Below, in pieces: positions 2,260-9,461 of a stretch of DNA of 12,879 nucleotides. Where the stretch lies: the NCBI GenBank assembly GCA_016840425.1, contig JAEOSI010000039.1, positions 1 to 12,879 on the forward strand, read 5' to 3'. Source of the stretch: Candidatus Wukongarchaeum yapensis. GTDB taxonomy: Archaea > Asgardarchaeota > Wukongarchaeia > Wukongarchaeales > Wukongarchaeaceae. The notes under the pieces were generated by a model that was not told the DNA's origin, ran no database searches, and saw nothing but the letters and a program-made list of their open reading frames with translations. Within the stretch, counting starts at the first letter, position 1; each line of letters opens with the position of its first letter. The translations under genes were made by a program, and so were the position numbers.

Positions 2260-5200
2260 ATGAGTTCAAATATTGCAATGAGTCTCCGCACAAAAAAATA
2301 TTTCGATGAACTATCTTCAAAAACAAACATTTTGTATGACATCGCAACTCGAGCGAAATTAAACGCAAAAGAACCCGAAGTAGAAACACACCCTGCTTCT
2401 GACATCGCTGCAAGAGTCGAAGGCTTGGTGGGTCCGAAAGGAATTGCAAATGCTATAAGAAGAATAAAAGAGGAAAAAATGTCGAGGGAAGAAATAGCTT
2501 TTAAAATCTCTGAAGAAATAGTTTTAGGGCGTTTTGGCGCATTTGAAGAAGAAAAAGGCGCAGATATAGCAATAAGGGCGGCATTATCCCTTTTAACCGA
2601 AGGGCTTACGGCAGCTCCCCAAGAAGGAATATCCAAAGTAAAAATCAAAAAGAATCCTGATGGAAGCCGTTATTTAGCCATATACTTTGCAGGACCAATA
2701 AGAGCTGCGGGAGGTACTGAAACCGCTATCGCTGTACTGATAGGCGACTACATAAGACAACGTTTACACCTTAACCGTTACCTTCCGAAAGCAGAAGAGG
2801 TAGAACGAGTAATCGAAGAAATCGCGTTATATTCCCGTGTAGGCCATGTACAGATACCTGTACCCCCCGAAGACATAAAGTTTGCCGCGGAACGTTTACC
2901 CGTTGAAGTCACAGGCGAGCCTACAGAGCAAGTTGAAGTTTCGGGTCATCGCGACCTTGAAAGAGTAGAAACTAACAGAGTCAGGGGTGGAGCTTGTCTT
3001 GTTATCAACGATGGAATCGTCGGTAGGGCACACAAAATCACAAACCTAATTGAAAAGGTTGGATTAACGGGTTGGGATTGGCTAAAAGAGCTTGCAGAAA
3101 AGAGGAAAGGAGCAAAAGTAAACGGAAATGAAAAAGAAGGAGAAGAAACGACGGAAATTAAGCCCGTTGAAAAATATCTTGAAGATGTTATAGTTGGAAG
3201 ACCTATTTTTTGTCATCCCTCGAAAATCGGCGGGTTTCGCTTGCGATATGGTCGTTCAAGAAACACGGGTCTTTCGGCGGTAGGGTTAAACCCAGCCACT
3301 ATGATCATTCTTGAGGATTTTTTAGCGCCAGGAACCCATATAGTTACTGAAAGACCGGGAAAAGGCGCCATAGTTATGCCTGTAGACACAATAGAAGGTC
3401 CGATTGTTAAACTAAACGATGGAACAGTGGTCGAAATAAAAGACGAAAAAGAAGCAACCATATTGGTAAATAGCGTAGAAGAAATTCTTTTTTTAGGAGA
3501 TATCCTCGTAGGATTTGGAGAGTTTCTAGAAAACAATCATCCTCTTATGCCCTCAAGCTTTACCAAAGAAATATGGTGCAGCGAACTACAAAAAACCATA
3601 ACAAAACTTTTCCAAAATGACATAGAAAACGCCGCCCAAGAAATAGAAATTGAAAAAGAAAAACTCATACAGTTTATAAAAGACCCCCTAAAAACTAAAC
3701 CTGATCCAGTAGAATCCCTAAAAATATCCCTAAAACTTAAAATCCCCCTACATCCCTCCTACACTTATTTTTGGAACAACTTAACAGAAAAAGATGTTTT
3801 CATGCTACGCCAGTGGATCGTAGAAAATAAAAAACAGTTTTCAAAAGATTTTATAACGAAAATCGAAGGCCCTTTTTCTCAAAAAATAAAAAACATACTC
3901 GAAAATCTCATGATACCCCACAAAAACGAAAATAGCACGATAATTCTCGAAGAGCACGCTCCAACACTCTCAGCAACACTAGGAATTTCGAAGAATATCG
4001 ATACAAAAATCGATCTTATAGACCAAACTCAAAACTCTTCTCTTTCTATAGTTAAGCATCTAGCAAGTTTCCCAATAAAAGACAAATTTAGTGGGATATA
4101 TATAGGGGCGAGGATGGGTAGACCGGAAAAAGCGAAAAAAAGGACAATGTCCCCCCCAGTACACGGTCTTTTTCCAGTTGGGATGGCAGGGGGGAAAACA
4201 AGAAACATTATCGACGCTTCTAAAAAGAGGAAAATTTGGATAGAAATTGTTAGAAAAGAATGTGAATGCGGTCATACTACCTACAAAATAAATTGCCCAA
4301 AATGTGGTAAAAAGCCTAGAATCCGCAACACATGCATCAATTGTGGAACCGTCTCAGACGCAACTATATGCCCTAAATGTGGAGGCGAATCTCGCCCTTA
4401 TTCAAAGCAAGAAACAAACCTCGAAGAAGAACTTGAAAACCTAAGGAAAAAAATCGGCGGCTTACCATCGCTAGTAAAAGGGGTCCAAGGACTTTTAAGT
4501 GAAACAAAAACCCCCGAACCCCTAATTAAAGGAATTTTAAGGGCAAAACACGACATATATGTTTTCAAAGACGGAACAGTACGTTTTGATGCTACCGACG
4601 CGCCCTTAACCCACTTCAAACCAAAAGAAATCAAAGTATCCATAGATAAACTAAAAGAACTCGACTACACCCACGACATCCACGGAAACCCCCTAAAAAA
4701 CGATGAACAAATCCTCGAACTCAAAGTACAAGACGCAGTTATAAGCGAAGAAGGCGCACCATACCTCCTAAAAACTGCAAACTTTATCGACACCCTTCTA
4801 CAAAAATATTACAACATGCCACCCTTTTACAATGCAAAAAAAATAGAAGAACTCATAGGCCATCTAGTAATCGGCCTAGCACCCCACACATCCGCAGGAA
4901 TAATAGGGCGAATCATTGGCTTCACCAAGGCAAAAGTAACCTTCGCTCACCCCTACTGGCATGCAGCAAAAAGAAGGAATTGTCTAATTGGTCGTGAAGA
5001 AGTGCTCCTCATCGATTCTATGAACCGACTAGTTATACGAAGAATCGGCGATTTAGAAGATGAAGATTTGAATCAGTTTCGCGCCATTTCAGTTGACAAG
5101 AAAGGGGAGATAGTTGCAAAGAAGATTCGTGAACTGGTTAAACTTCCTGCACCAAAGCATTTGTATCGAATTCGTACAAGTACCGGAAGAGAGATTATTG

Positions 5201-7161
5201 CTACACCTGATCATAAAATGGTTGTATTTAAAGAGGATGGCGTAGAATTCGTTGAGATGCAGGCTTTACAACTTGGAGATAAACTGCTTTCTTTAGCGAA
5301 TCTCCCCACTTTTGATACTTCTACAAATATTGATTTGATAGATTATTTTCTAAAACAGCCCAATTATGAGGATTTGAGGATACATGGGGCAAAAGAGATC
5401 CTTGCAGCTGCTATAATGAAATCCGGAGGCTATGCCGCTGTTATGCAGAAATTAAATCTCAAATTAACCGGAAAATCTCTTTGGGGCTATATTCACAAGA
5501 ATTCAGTACCTTTAGATGTTTTTCACTTAATTACTGAAAGGTTGAAACTTGATATTGATTATAGTTCTTTAAGAATCTCTTATCGAAAAAATGCGGCCAC
5601 ACTCCCTGTTTTGCTCCCTCTTTCGAAAAAACTCGGTGAACTCTCAGGGCTTTATCTCTCCGATGGATTTAGCCGTACAGATTGGAAACCCGGCAAATCC
5701 AAGTATTTCTACCAGGTTTCATGGGCGATTTCAGAGAAAGACGTCGTAGATCGCGTTATGGAATTCTGTAAAACCCTTTTTAATCGAAATCCTTCTATCA
5801 TAAAAAACGATGATCATCCTTATATCATCACTCTAAGTGGAAAAATGTACTATGAACTGTTTAGGAATATTCTTGGATTAGGTAATGGTGCTCATGAAAA
5901 AAGTGCCGCAAAATGTTCATCCTTTTCAAAGGAGTTCCAAAAGGGATTGCTCGGGGGAGTATTATACGGTGATGGTAATATTGACAAATCCGTTACACTA
6001 ACCTCAGTAAATAGAGAACTGATAAACCACCTTGCGCTAATATCCTTGAACTTGGATCTATATCCTCATCTACACAATTCAATCAGAACAACCAACTTTT
6101 CCAAGGATCCCGTCACATTTTATAACATTCGATATTATTCAACCGATCTTCCTAAATTATCTGAGTTCCTTTTTGGAGTTCAGAAGGATCAATTATTAGA
6201 ACGCCTCGCCTCTCAACTCCTTGGTCAAAAGCACCAATCACGTTTTGGTTGTTTCAATATTGTGAAAATCAAAGAATTAGAACGTATCATAGAACACGGA
6301 GAGGACTTCGTATACGATTTCGTATTGGAATCTGATGAAAAGACATTCATTGCAGGATTTGGGGCCCTAGCCACTTACGATTGCGATGGAGATGAAGACT
6401 CAATAATACTCGCACTAGACGCTTTTTTAAACTTCTCCAAAAGCTACCTTCCAAGCACCCGTGGTGGATTAATGGACGCCCCCCTCGTAGTAACAATAAC
6501 CCTAAATCCCGAAGAAGTAGACGATGAAAGCCATAAAGTAGACGCTGGAAAAAAATACCCCCCAGAATTTTACAAACTATGCAAAAAAATGATCAACCCA
6601 AAAAAAGCAGCAAAAATAATCGATATTTTAGAACATAGACTCGGGACAGCCGCCCAATTCGAAGGGATATACTACACCCATGAAACATCCAACATCGCAT
6701 CTGGTCCCCAAAGCTCAGCTTATAAAAAACTAAAATCAATGCCCGAAAAACTCCAAGCCCAACTAAGAATCGCAAAAAAGGTTAAAGCAGTAGACCTGGA
6801 AGATGTAGCAGAACGCATAATAAACCACCATTTACTCCCTGACCTACTCGGATGCATGCGCGCCTTCGGAACACAAAGCTTCCGCTGCGTTAACTGCAAT
6901 CAAAAATACCGGAGAATCCCCCTGAAAGGAAAATGTCTAAAATGCGGCGGGAAACTACTCTTAACAGTTAGTAGAAAAACTGTCATGAAATATTTTAATT
7001 TAGCCAAAGAACTCGTCAAAAAATACAACCTTCAACCTTACCTCCAACAACGTTTAGAACTATTCGAAGATGCAGCAAACACTCTCTTCGAAACTGAAAA
7101 CAAAAACCAACGAAGCCTTTCAGACTTCTCCAATTTAAATGAAAACAAAAAAGAAGAGTAA
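2260..7161 (+). CDS. polC: DNA polymerase II (PolD) large subunit DP2 precursor with one intein (1633 aa; ~1166 aa after splicing)
   Basis: DP2 motifs: DIAARVEGLVG, GLTAAPQEGI, YFAGPIRAAGGT, RVRGGACLVINDG, GGFRLRYGRSRNTG, GDILVGFGEFLENNHPL, IGARMGRPEKA, FKDGTVRFDATDAPLTHF, GLAPHTSAGIIGRIIGF, HAAKRRN|CDGDED, PSTRGGLMDAPL, and Zn-finger clusters including RCVNC...KCLKCGG. Confidence 0.98.
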   Translation: MSSNIAMSLRTKKYFDELSSKTNILYDIATRAKLNAKEPEVETHPASDIAARVEGLVGPKGIANAIRRIKEEKMSREEIAFKISEEIVLGRFGAFEEEKGADIAIRAALSLLTEGLTAAPQEGISKVKIKKNPDGSRYLAIYFAGPIRAAGGTETAIAVLIGDYIRQRLHLNRYLPKAEEVERVIEEIALYSRVGHVQIPVPPEDIKFAAERLPVEVTGEPTEQVEVSGHRDLERVETNRVRGGACLVINDGIVGRAHKITNLIEKVGLTGWDWLKELAEKRKGAKVNGNEKEGEETTEIKPVEKYLEDVIVGRPIFCHPSKIGGFRLRYGRSRNTGLSAVGLNPATMIILEDFLAPGTHIVTERPGKGAIVMPVDTIEGPIVKLNDGTVVEIKDEKEATILVNSVEEILFLGDILVGFGEFLENNHPLMPSSFTKEIWCSELQKTITKLFQNDIENAAQEIEIEKEKLIQFIKDPLKTKPDPVESLKISLKLKIPLHPSYTYFWNNLTEKDVFMLRQWIVENKKQFSKDFITKIEGPFSQKIKNILENLMIPHKNENSTIILEEHAPTLSATLGISKNIDTKIDLIDQTQNSSLSIVKHLASFPIKDKFSGIYIGARMGRPEKAKKRTMSPPVHGLFPVGMAGGKTRNIIDASKKRKIWIEIVRKECECGHTTYKINCPKCGKKPRIRNTCINCGTVSDATICPKCGGESRPYSKQETNLEEELENLRKKIGGLPSLVKGVQGLLSETKTPEPLIKGILRAKHDIYVFKDGTVRFDATDAPLTHFKPKEIKVSIDKLKELDYTHDIHGNPLKNDEQILELKVQDAVISEEGAPYLLKTANFIDTLLQKYYNMPPFYNAKKIEELIGHLVIGLAPHTSAGIIGRIIGFTKAKVTFAHPYWHAAKRRNCLIGREEVLLIDSMNRLVIRRIGDLEDEDLNQFRAISVDKKGEIVAKKIRELVKLPAPKHLYRIRTSTGREIIATPDHKMVVFKEDGVEFVEMQALQLGDKLLSLANLPTFDTSTNIDLIDYFLKQPNYEDLRIHGAKEILAAAIMKSGGYAAVMQKLNLKLTGKSLWGYIHKNSVPLDVFHLITERLKLDIDYSSLRISYRKNAATLPVLLPLSKKLGELSGLYLSDGFSRTDWKPGKSKYFYQVSWAISEKDVVDRVMEFCKTLFNRNPSIIKNDDHPYIITLSGKMYYELFRNILGLGNGAHEKSAAKCSSFSKEFQKGLLGGVLYGDGNIDKSVTLTSVNRELINHLALISLNLDLYPHLHNSIRTTNFSKDPVTFYNIRYYSTDLPKLSEFLFGVQKDQLLERLASQLLGQKHQSRFGCFNIVKIKELERIIEHGEDFVYDFVLESDEKTFIAGFGALATYDCDGDEDSIILALDAFLNFSKSYLPSTRGGLMDAPLVVTITLNPEEVDDESHKVDAGKKYPPEFYKLCKKMINPKKAAKIIDILEHRLGTAAQFEGIYYTHETSNIASGPQSSAYKKLKSMPEKLQAQLRIAKKVKAVDLEDVAERIINHHLLPDLLGCMRAFGTQSFRCVNCNQKYRRIPLKGKCLKCGGKLLLTVSRKTVMKYFNLAKELVKKYNLQPYLQQRLELFEDAANTLFETENKNQRSLSDFSNLNENKKEE
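4981..6381 (+). mobile_element. Intein (467 aa, C908-D1374 of the precursor) with LAGLIDADG homing endonuclease, inserted at RRN/CDGDED
   Basis: In-frame insertion splitting HAAKRRN from CDGDED. Block A CLIGREEVLL (4981), block B REIIATPDHKMV (TPDH 5203-5214), block F FVYDFVL (6307-6327), C-terminus ALATYD followed by Cys+1 (TGC 6382). Confidence 0.96.
5632..6060 (+). other. LAGLIDADG endonuclease core of the intein (approximate span)
   Basis: Motif 1 LGELSGLYLSDG (5632-5667), motif 2 KGLLGGVLYGDG (5941-5976), then block-H-like SVNRELINHLALISLNLDL. Both motifs keep the acidic residue before the final Gly. Confidence 0.88.
7108..7131 (+). other. PCNA-interacting (PIP-box-like) motif QRSLSDFS near the DP2 C-terminus
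   Basis: Matches Q-x-x-L-x-x-F. A C-terminal PIP motif is an established feature of DP2. Confidence 0.7.
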
Positions 7162-7210: not shown

Positions 7211-7522
7211 GTGCAAAAATTGCCCAAAAATAAAGACGAAAAAAAGAAAATAGAACTTGACCCCAAAGCAATACTAAAAAACAAAAGAAACATCTTCAAA
7301 GGCCTAAAAACAAGAACTCTCATCTTAAAAACAATAAAAAAAGCACCACTATCCGCCCAAGAAATAGCCGAAAAAATCGGGCGCTCTTATACGGCTACTT
7401 TCAATCATCTCCACGCCCTACTACAAGAAAAAATTTTAGAGAGAGAGAAAGTTGGAAGAAAATACATCTGGGGAATTACAGGTATAGGTCAGGAAGAAAT
7501 AGGCAAATACCTAAAAACCTAA
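7211..7522 (+). CDS. Small basic winged helix-turn-helix protein (ArsR-like fold)
   Basis: RTLILKTIKKAPLSAQEIAEKIGRSYTATFNHLHALLQEKILEREKVGRKYIW fits three helices plus a beta wing. Start uncertain (GTG 7211 or TTG 7220). Begins 49 nt after the polC stop on the same strand. Confidence 0.82.
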   Translation: MQKLPKNKDEKKKIELDPKAILKNKRNIFKGLKTRTLILKTIKKAPLSAQEIAEKIGRSYTATFNHLHALLQEKILEREKVGRKYIWGITGIGQEEIGKYLKT

Positions 7523-7546: not shown

Positions 7547-9334
7547 TTAAAAACCCCCTATATTGGCTTCTCTTCTCGCATATTCCTTTATCGTTGAAAC
7601 AAGTTGATTCTTAGCCGTTATTGGGGGAGAACAGAGATTCTGAACACAAACGTATGCCACAGTTTCATCCTTTACAGGATAACCAAGCAAAGGTAAAACT
7701 TCTTCATCTTCTACAGGATCCAAAACACGAACAATCCTCCGAGGCTCATAAAAACGCAAACTCTCAAAAATCATCTCTTTAACATCCTCAGAATCCTTAT
7801 ACCCCACAACATTCACCTTCACTAAACCCCTAAGAAACAAATATACTGCCTTAGCATAATAGGACGCAAAAAGACTGTAACGACTATAAAGCCCAGTGAA
7901 AGAAGCAAGTGTACGTTCTGCAATCCTTTTAAAATCTTGGTTATCGGTCAGATAATAAAGCTTAATAAGAGATATTGCAGCAGTAGAATTCTCAATTATG
8001 GATTTAAAACGTTTTTTTAAGTTGCCTAAAGCCTTCGAATCACTAAAAATATCGAAAAAGCCTCCCACTTTTTCATCAAAAAATTCGCCAACCATAAAAT
8101 CCGTAATTTCCATTGCAATGTCCAAATAACGCTTCTCAAACGTTTTCTCATAACCCTCAAGAAGCGCTTTTACAAAATGAACATTATCCCTGAAAAGCCC
8201 ATAAGTCTGGGGTACATCATCGGCAAAATAATGGAACATGCCTTCCCCCTTCTTATGACAATTTTTCAATAAAAATTCAATAGTTGAAACAGCACGGTTA
8301 AGATAATCTTTTTCTCCCAAAATAGTATAAGCCTCAAGATATGATGAAATCATCATACTATTCCAGTCAACATAAATTGTTTTATTAATGAATGGAGGAG
8401 CCCTACGCTTCCTCTCCTCAAGACCAAAGCTATAATATTCCTCATCAGCATCCTGACTTCCATAAAAACCTCCCCCAGGATTAAAAAGTTTAGAATTCAC
8501 ATAATCCGAGATCTCCACAGCTACCCTTTTATATTTCTCATCTCCAACAACCTGGAAAACCCTTAAATAATTTTTCAAAAGCCCAGCATTAGTCTCAAGC
8601 ATCTTTTCAAAGTGCGGTATGCTCCAATCCCTTGTTGTAGAATATCTAAAGAAACCACCTTCAACCTTATCATAAGTTCTACTATCATACATAAAATCAA
8701 GAGTTTTAGTTACAATCTTTAAAAAACCCTTTTTCCCCAGATCCAAATTATATCTTAAAAGGGCAAGATCTACAGCTTCTGGATGGGGGAATTTAGGCTG
8801 ATCACCAAAACCACCATATTGATCATCAAAATTTAATACAACTGCATCTAAAATGTCAGAAATAATAGAATCATTCAAAACCCCTTTCCCTCTTTCAAAT
8901 TCCTCTCTTTCTAAAGCTTCTTCCGTGATTCTAAGACTTTTAATCCGCTCGTAAATCTCATCCTTATTCGCCTTATACTGATCAGAAATCTGTTTTAATA
9001 TCGGTTTAAACCTATCAGGAGGGATATAAGTAGCTCCTGCGAAAACATCACCATCAGGAGTTAGAAAAGCTGTTGTAGGAAATCCTCCAAAATTATACCT
9101 CTCACTAATATCAGGACGCTGATCAATATCAACCTTGATCGGTATGTATAGTTCATTGATAAGCTCGATAATCTCTTCGTTAGAATAACTGTCCTCATCC
9201 ATGCGATGACACCAATAACACCACGCTGGGGCCGTTAAATTGAGCAAAATCGGCTTATCTAGCTTTTTAGCTAGCTCAAAAACCTCTTTTCCCCATTCAT
9301 ACCACTCAATCTCTTTTTCATTATTAGCAACCAA
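7547..9334 (-). CDS. Thioredoxin-domain protein of the YyaL/DUF255/SPATA20 family (thioredoxin plus alpha/alpha-toroid), ~595 aa
   Basis: IEWYEWG..A..LDKPILL, WCYWCHRMD (CxxC), IKVDIDQRPDI, GGFPTTAFLTPDG, YGGFGDQPKFP, GGFFRYSTTRDWSIPHFEKML, C-terminal AYVC..NLCSPP. I prefer TTG 9334 (GGGGGT 9 nt upstream) over ATG 9394, which falls in the TATA-like element. Confidence 0.9.
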   Translation of the reverse strand: MVANNEKEIEWYEWGKEVFELAKKLDKPILLNLTAPAWCYWCHRMDEDSYSNEEIIELINELYIPIKVDIDQRPDISERYNFGGFPTTAFLTPDGDVFAGATYIPPDRFKPILKQISDQYKANKDEIYERIKSLRITEEALEREEFERGKGVLNDSIISDILDAVVLNFDDQYGGFGDQPKFPHPEAVDLALLRYNLDLGKKGFLKIVTKTLDFMYDSRTYDKVEGGFFRYSTTRDWSIPHFEKMLETNAGLLKNYLRVFQVVGDEKYKRVAVEISDYVNSKLFNPGGGFYGSQDADEEYYSFGLEERKRRAPPFINKTIYVDWNSMMISSYLEAYTILGEKDYLNRAVSTIEFLLKNCHKKGEGMFHYFADDVPQTYGLFRDNVHFVKALLEGYEKTFEKRYLDIAMEITDFMVGEFFDEKVGGFFDIFSDSKALGNLKKRFKSIIENSTAAISLIKLYYLTDNQDFKRIAERTLASFTGLYSRYSLFASYYAKAVYLFLRGLVKVNVVGYKDSEDVKEMIFESLRFYEPRRIVRVLDPVEDEEVLPLLGYPVKDETVAYVCVQNLCSPPITAKNQLVSTIKEYARREANIGGF

Positions 9335-9461
9335 AAAGTTAAAACCCCCGTAACTAACCCAAAAAATTTGCTGCAAATTTCTACAAAAAACCATATATAA
9401 ACCTAATTAAATTATAGAAATAAAAAATAAAAAAAACCAATATTACAAGTAGAGGTTTCTT
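9335..9461. promoter_or_regulatory. Divergent promoter region with shared TATA-like element
   Basis: TATATAAA at 9394-9401 on + reads TTTATATA on -, so it could serve both genes. SD-like GAGGT at 9452-9456 precedes ATG 9462. Confidence 0.6.
9364..9380. repeat. Perfect inverted repeat AAATTTGC-T-GCAAATTT (operator-like)
   Basis: 8-bp arms around a 1-nt centre, read directly from the sequence. Confidence 0.75.

Follow-up and report, generated by a model that had tools for sequence, protein, structure and literature searches.

The closest described relatives of the element reported here are the inteins of PolII (DP2) from Pyrococcus abyssi, P. horikoshii and Methanoculleus marisnigri (2LCJ, 5BKH, and 7OEC), which are inserted in the same host protein at the same KRRN/CDGDED site (the slash marks the splice junction). 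These inteins end in His-Gln; that the characterized PolII inteins have a terminal Gln was already pointed out in an earlier reading of our sequence made by a model from the letters alone (hereafter, the sequence-only reading), in agreement with published work (PMC4031507, PMC8229266). They also keep the block-F His, which in the P. horikoshii (Pho) intein is 3.4 Å away from the terminal Gln's carbonyl and has been proposed to activate cyclization (PMC8229266). Here, we analyzed the DP2 gene of Candidatus Wukongarchaeum yapensis on contig JAEOSI010000039.1, the whole of which (12,879 nucleotides, 12.9 kb) is referred to as the window, and which belongs to a metagenome-assembled genome of 2.16 Mb that is 92% complete. 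The intein found in this gene has Cys1, Cys+1, and a non-Asn C-terminal residue in common with the PolII inteins, but it ends in Tyr-Asp and contains a Lys in place of the block-F His. It also carries a LAGLIDADG domain, whereas the two Pyrococcus inteins are mini-inteins devoid of endonuclease. The window intein is probably a functional mobile class-1 intein, seated in the catalytic loop of DP2, that would accomplish the third step of splicing by cyclization of its terminal Asp.

The N-terminal, central, and catalytic domains of PolC_DP2 were detected by Pfam in the DP2 open reading frame (E-values from 1e-102 to 1e-135), the catalytic domain being interrupted by a match to Intein_splicing (PF14890; 40.7–42.2 bits for a cut-off of 35.8). 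A search within the source genome showed that this DP2 gene is present in a single copy; the genome also contains a DP1 gene and two matches to family-B polymerases. The features of the gene and of its insert are as follows.

2260 to 7161, plus strand: gene of the PolD large subunit (DP2), 1633 residues (open reading frame list and translation).
2260 to 4980, plus strand: N-extein, ending in H-A-A-K-R-R-N (translation; intein-free relatives read KRRN/CDGDED).
4981 to 6381, plus strand: intein of 467 residues (residues 908 to 1374), with a predicted HINT splicing domain and nested LAGLIDADG endonuclease (Pfam, AlphaFold2, Foldseek, and an intein-free allele).
4981 to 4983, plus strand: Cys1 (Cys908, TGT), nucleophile of step 1, invariant in alignment A1.
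5185 to 5226, plus strand: block B, G-R-E-I-I-A-T-P-D-H-K-M-V-V, with T-P-D-H at 5203–5214 (Thr at 5203–5205, His at 5212–5214).
5632 to 5679, plus strand: LAGLIDADG motif 1 (...G-L-Y-L-S-D-G...), acidic residue present (alignment and Foldseek matches to I-DmoI).
5935 to 5988, plus strand: LAGLIDADG motif 2 (...G-G-V-L-Y-G-D-G...), acidic residue present (Pfam LAGLIDADG_3, PF14528, 23.8 bits for a cut-off of 22.5).
6304 to 6354, plus strand: block F, with V-Y-D (Asp at 6316–6318) and Lys1361 (6340–6342) at the usual position of the block-F His; these four residues (V, Y, D, and K) show no variation in A1.
6355 to 6381, plus strand: block G, G-F-G-A-L-A-T-Y-D, with Tyr1373 (6376–6378) where a penultimate His is usual and Asp1374 (6379–6381, GAT) where the canonical last residue is Asn.
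6382 to 7161, plus strand: C-extein, whose first residue, Cys+1 (Cys1375, TGC, 6382–6384), lies in the catalytic C-D-G-D-E-D (translation; intein-free alleles).

The intein thus starts with C-L-I-G-R-E-E and ends with F-G-A-L-A-T-Y-D, and it separates the Asn from the Cys of KRRN/CDGDED in the catalytic loop. At positions 6370–6399, the codons gcc act tac gat (A-T-Y-D) are followed by tgc gat gga gat gaa gac (C-D-G-D-E-D). These boundaries received independent support from run X9, a sediment metagenome, in which an 82-nt contig joins the sequence encoding P-Y-W-H-A-A-K-R-R-N straight to position 6382 (TGC GAT GGA...). This contig is an intein-free DP2 allele, which differs from the window by two synonymous changes in the two codons just before the junction, and it fixes the limits of the intein at 4981 and 6381. 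The intein-free DP2 proteins of the relatives L095 and L096 also read KRRN/CDGDED. The parse proposed in the sequence-only reading, with a terminal Asp and a Tyr replacing the penultimate His, was therefore retained, and the residues that it had described as intact (Cys1, TPDH of block B, the block-F Asp, and Cys+1) were all found at the positions listed above. Of the span that it had given, 4981–6384, the start was correct, but the intein stops at 6381, the last three bases being the codon of Cys+1. Another parse, in which the intein would run from Leu to Cys, was rejected: such an intein would lack a nucleophile both at its first position and at +1, and it is also contradicted by the intein-free allele, which contains TGC, the codon at 6382, and not TGT, the codon at 4981.

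Cys1 and Cys+1, both invariant in A1, the T-x-x-H of block B, and the Asp of block F (F:4) are those of a class-1 intein, whereas this class's penultimate His (at G:6) and its terminal Asn (at G:7) are replaced by Tyr1373 and Asp1374. These deviations do not exclude class-1 membership because both are documented in functional inteins, about 5% of which have no penultimate His (PMC4031507). The window intein also has the two attributes of an Asp-terminal intein, namely a natural C-terminal Asp (Asp1374) and a nucleophilic +1 residue (Cys1375).

Since GAT is a single transition from AAT, an assembly or sequencing error could in principle have hidden a canonical terminal Asn, and the sequence-only reading had raised this caveat and asked for the support of base 6379. 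The stretch is contained in 20 public runs from 14 studies, recorded as marine sediment, seawater, marsh, and sediment metagenomes. Contigs from three independent studies (X1, 2017; X3, 2021; X9, 2025) run across base 6379, and no mismatch is recorded for them at 6379–6381; X1 and X3 each contain three "other letters" over 601 bases, the places of which are not listed, and positions 6379–6381 are here taken at face value. In run X6, contigs end at 6360 and resume at 6382, with no listed contig over 6361–6381; this gap, which may correspond to a branch of the assembly graph between intein-plus and intein-minus alleles, proves nothing. The relatives provide a stronger argument: the terminal Asp is encoded in independent assemblies by GAT (the window, L005/L086, L007–L009, and others) or by GAC (L003, L004, L006, L041, L087, and L098), it is found in all 36 of the relatives described below, and it is accompanied throughout by the block-F Lys and, with few exceptions, by the penultimate Tyr. 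An error at this codon is thus excluded, the chance of a hidden Asn being practically nil, and the caveat was set aside.

The intein region, used as a query against 5.8 billion proteins, recovered 19 further DP2 proteins, 89% to 30% identical over the intein, all of which end in Asp. An HMMER search run all against the library, together with a second word search, brought the set to 36 cluster representatives, about 30–90% identical, all Asp-ending (33 Y-D and 3 I-D), and further genome and metagenome loci showed the endings T-V-D, L-F-D, and V-F-D. When DNA was scanned with a pattern that placed no constraint on the last two codons of the intein, nine of the nine true DP2 matches had Asp and none had Asn; three other matches, from the metagenome scan (L100, L101, and L103), were discarded as chance matches outside DP2. 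Among the 165 DP2-site junctions of a first sample, the terminal residue was Asn in 93, Gln in 41, Asp in 23, and Arg in 8. The view expressed in the sequence-only reading that Asp-ending inteins are very rare does not hold at this site, and the tabulation of terminal dipeptides that it had called for showed both that Asp is kept throughout the related clade and that this ending is not unique to the window.

Phylogenetic analysis was performed with the last two residues removed on 70 DP2-site inteins (main tree), and a quick tree included 148 rows. The Asp-ending inteins formed one clade (ultrafast bootstrap, UFboot, 100; Shimodaira–Hasegawa-like approximate likelihood ratio test, SH-aLRT, 98), requiring one change of state, whose nearest relatives are the His-Asn-ending DP2 inteins P0048 and P0129 (98/97); the Gln-ending DP2 inteins were separate from it. 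According to record titles, members of the clade come from Hodarchaeota (L005, 90% identical), Lokiarchaeota, Thorarchaeota, Iainarchaeum/Diapherotrites, Micrarchaeota, and Candidatus Alkanophaga. Within this clade, no variation was seen at Cys1, the V-Y-D of block F, a Lys located 13 positions ahead of the last residue, the G-x-G in block G, the Asp at the C-terminus, or Cys+1. The Thr of block B is also invariant, and its His is kept in all members but P0017, P0019, and P0263, which have a Gln (T-P-K-Q or T-G-K-Q). In these three inteins, all three of the usual catalytic histidines are therefore absent; the other members of their branch keep the block-B His.

This signature was compared with two groups of described inteins. 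The N-terminal splicing lobe of the window intein is similar to those of the PolII inteins (E-values from 1e-5 to 5e-4), and the alignment with 5bkh runs through the junction. In the HMMER alignment with this Pho structure (E = 0.4, anchored on the exteins), the Lys corresponds to the block-F His, the Tyr to the penultimate His, and the Asp to the Gln. PI-PkoII, the Pol-2 intein of Thermococcus kodakarensis (2CW7), was the best structural match and the best match among PDB sequences over the endonuclease and the C-terminal lobe. The widespread LAGLIDADG inteins of the type V-Y-D...E/Q-N-F-x-x-G-F-G-G-x-x-x-H-N have blocks F and G of the same length as those of the clade and the same G-F-G motif, but these PI-PkoII-type inteins end in His-Asn, have Glu or Gln at the position of the Lys, and reside in other host proteins. 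From the block lengths and the aligned positions, it follows that three substitutions travel together: Lys replaces Glu, Gln, or His, Tyr replaces His, and Asp replaces Asn.

A structural model of the intein was computed with AlphaFold2 from 19 homologues (predicted local distance difference test score 89.7; predicted template modeling score 0.90). With this model, Foldseek retrieved PI-PkoII (2cw7) as the best match (E = 7e-30), followed by TliVMA, PI-PfuI, and PI-SceI, and the endonuclease part matched I-DmoI (TM-score of 0.72–0.80, normalized to the target). The predicted architecture is that of a HINT fold with a nested I-DmoI-like LAGLIDADG endonuclease.

Two other groups of DP2 inteins were observed in the course of these searches. 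Eight DP2 inteins of about 510 residues at the KRRN/CDGDED site (P0087, P0170, P0171, P0179, P0181, P0207, P0210, and P0228) apparently end in Arg (for example, ...Q-V-F-T-I-R/CDGDED); they group in a clade of their own (100/99), distinct from that of the Asp-enders, and have a Lys at the position of the block-F His and a Cys at the usual position of the block-F Asp. The Gln-ending Heimdall-type DP2 inteins (P0106–P0117 and relatives), of about 535–545 residues, have S-Y-C-L-E-V in block F; this Cys recalls the Cys F:4 of class-3 inteins, and Cys1 is still present.

The loss of both the penultimate His and the terminal Asn could also indicate that the intein is decaying and does not splice, in which case DP2 would be inactive and replication would depend on family-B polymerases. 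The two family-B matches in the genome would be in keeping with such a scenario, as would a ratio of non-synonymous to synonymous substitution rates (dN/dS) that is higher in the intein than in the exteins. When the window was compared with L003 and L005 (about 89–90% protein identity), dN/dS was 0.27–0.37 for the intein, 0.12–0.17 for its C-terminal splicing lobe, and about 0.10 (0.08–0.12) for the exteins on both sides of the insert; the distant relatives L004 and L087, for which dS was saturated, were left out. The intein is thus itself under purifying selection, and a dead gene would not show such values in its exteins. Furthermore, the frame of 1633 residues is open throughout, the genome has no second copy of DP2, and a deep clade found across several phyla conserves Asp, Tyr, Lys, Cys1, the Asp of block F, and Cys+1. 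The ending is also kept in derivatives whose endonuclease is lost or decayed. P0174, a partial DP2 of 479 residues, contains a mini-intein of 170 residues from which the whole endonuclease has disappeared, while T-K-Q-H of block B, V-Y-D, the Lys, and Y-D/C remain, and P0010, P0012, and P0013 have a decayed LAGLIDADG motif 2 and an intact Y-D end. This retention implies that selection for splicing maintains the ending, which does not just travel with a homing element. Decay of the intein therefore appears very improbable. As the sequence-only reading had anticipated, the element very likely splices, a view that is based on the single DP2 gene, the low dN/dS of its exteins, and the invariance of the Asp.

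Synonymous divergence (dS) from L003 and L005 was 0.13–0.20 for the intein and 0.41–0.49 for the exteins on either side, which makes it 2.5–3 times lower in the intein, with no overlap in 1000 bootstraps. In comparison with G013, which belongs to another family, the intein was 55% identical and the exteins 49%. Among the 40 relatives searched, the Y-D intein was found in G001, of the same genus, and in G013, but was absent from G023 and G033, which are in the family of G013; most genomes of the phylum contain an intein-free DP2, and in still others this site is occupied by inteins that end in Asn or Gln. This low dS, this patchy presence, and the intein-free allele in the X9 sample are indirect signs that suggest a recent homing or horizontal spread of the intein, and the pattern would fit a homing element that still spreads, with a putative cleavage activity.

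The sequence-only reading had also considered slow or conditional splicing as a post-translational control on replication. In this view, the Tyr-Asp end would make splicing slow or conditional on pH, redox state, or temperature, and would thereby regulate the maturation of PolD. The Gln-ending PolII inteins splice slowly (PMC4031507), a disulfide trap is conceivable as Cys1 and Cys+1 are both Cys, and an Asp nucleophile would be expected to be pH-sensitive. However, the sequences are silent on any rate or condition, a patchy distribution with recent spread fits a selfish element better than a regulatory device of the host, and intein-free alleles coexist with intein-containing ones in the same sample (depths of about 4.7 and 7, respectively, in the X9 sediment metagenome). 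Such a regulatory role seems to us rather improbable.

We propose that the window intein splices as a class-1 intein with a modified release step. Steps 1, 2, and 4 would proceed as in any class-1 intein, with Cys1, the Thr and His of block B, the Asp of block F, and Cys+1. At the third step, the carboxyl group in the side chain of the last Asp would attack the backbone carbonyl of the same residue to form a cyclic anhydride, which would free the intein from the branched intermediate and allow the exteins to be ligated, restoring RRNCDGDED. The C-terminal splicing residues of the clade changed together, to Lys, Tyr (rarely Ile, Val, or Phe), and Asp. By analogy with previous reports, which state that Asp and Gln at the C-terminus of an intein can cyclize and that an Asp end is compatible with splicing (PMC4031507), Asp cyclization, which the sequence-only reading had also considered possible, is the probable course of step 3. 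The invariant Lys occupies, by alignment, the place that the block-F His holds in the Pho intein, and Lys1361 and Tyr1373 may thus assist this step.

Alternatively, the intein may splice without cyclization of the Asp, by direct hydrolysis or a general-base attack organized by Lys, Tyr, and Asp, or by a route akin to that of the Arg-ending inteins. The side chain of Arg cannot cyclize. The apparent Arg-enders at the same site suggest that release without side-chain cyclization may be possible in this host context, and the Lys is invariant in the Asp and Arg clades alike; "other mechanisms" have also been considered for Glu-, Gln-, and Asp-ending inteins (PMC4031507). On the other hand, the strict invariance of the Asp, in 36 representatives and further loci, fits a direct chemical role of its side chain, there is a published precedent for Asp cyclization (PMC4031507), and the Arg clade stands apart from the Asp clade on the tree. 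We consider this alternative unlikely.

Several points nevertheless weigh against splicing by Asp cyclization as proposed here. The support for splicing and for the chemistry of step 3 is comparative (selection, conservation, and single DP2 copy), the proximity of Lys1361 and Tyr1373 to Asp1374 comes from the alignment with a solved homologue that has a weak score (E = 0.4), and base 6379 was checked on Logan assembled contigs, not on raw reads. In addition, as the genome contains family-B polymerase genes, that PolD is essential to this organism is inferred from established knowledge of other archaea (PMC7708050).

A more speculative extension, which we put forward tentatively, is that Lys...Tyr-Asp might constitute a distinct, co-evolved mode of release catalysis that operates without either of the C-terminal histidines and, in the P0017/P0019/P0263 branch, without the block-B His as well. 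The Lys would then be an electrostatic or proton-donating partner of the Asp nucleophile and, because this nucleophile depends on its protonation state, the maturation of the polymerase could possibly be tied to intracellular pH.

The GC content of the intein was 0.381, compared to 0.404 for the exteins, which, with its low dS, would fit a recent horizontal spread. Downstream of DP2, the window contains an open reading frame of 103 residues on the same strand (7211–7522), followed by one of 615 residues on the opposite strand (7547–9394). The matching genes in the close relative L003 gave a weak match to an HVO_A0114 winged-helix domain and matches to thioredoxin/DsbH-like domains, and the gene order downstream of DP2 was the same in the two assemblies. 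The source genome also encodes an MCM helicase of 1700 residues (L109:999-6101, minus strand, contig C152 of G000) interrupted by two LAGLIDADG inteins, one with an HTH_3 domain, both of which have a canonical C-terminus (Y-V-H-N/S and I-V-H-N/C). The Tyr-Asp end is therefore specific to the DP2 element and does not characterize its host.

Precedents exist for the insertion site, for a non-Asn end at this position, for the loss of the penultimate His, and for a terminal Asp. Asp-terminal inteins were described by Amitai, Dassa, and Pietrokovski in 2004 (J Biol Chem 279:3121; cited in PMC4031507 and PMC4760082). The ribonucleotide reductase intein of Carboxydothermus hydrogenoformans is reportedly an example. 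That intein is, like the window intein, an Asp-ending class-1 intein, but it is found in a different host protein and a different domain of life, and the two are likened by their terminal residue only; the shared Asp may be convergent. Unlike this published case, the Asp of the window intein marks a clade that numbers at least 36 members, in which it is joined by an invariant Lys and, in most of them, by a Tyr. Asp-ending inteins, known since 2004, are treated as isolated cases in the literature searched, and no description of an Asp-ending DP2 clade or of the Lys/Tyr/Asp signature was found in this literature, most subscription papers being outside the search.

For the annotation of archaeal genomes, these results mean that Tyr-Asp/Cys is very probably a genuine splice junction of PolD, to which no error or pseudogene label should be given. 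The clade could also supply protein engineering with new inteins in which C-terminal cleavage may show a different response to pH, and the mini-intein of P0174 is a convenient minimal construct for biochemistry. Finally, the clade provides a natural set of sequences at one host site, with at least 36 representatives that range from full-length inteins to mini-inteins of 170 residues and are distributed over Asgard, DPANN, and methanogen-related archaea. It is experimentally tractable and suits the study of how the release step is catalyzed in inteins that do without the His-Asn pair.

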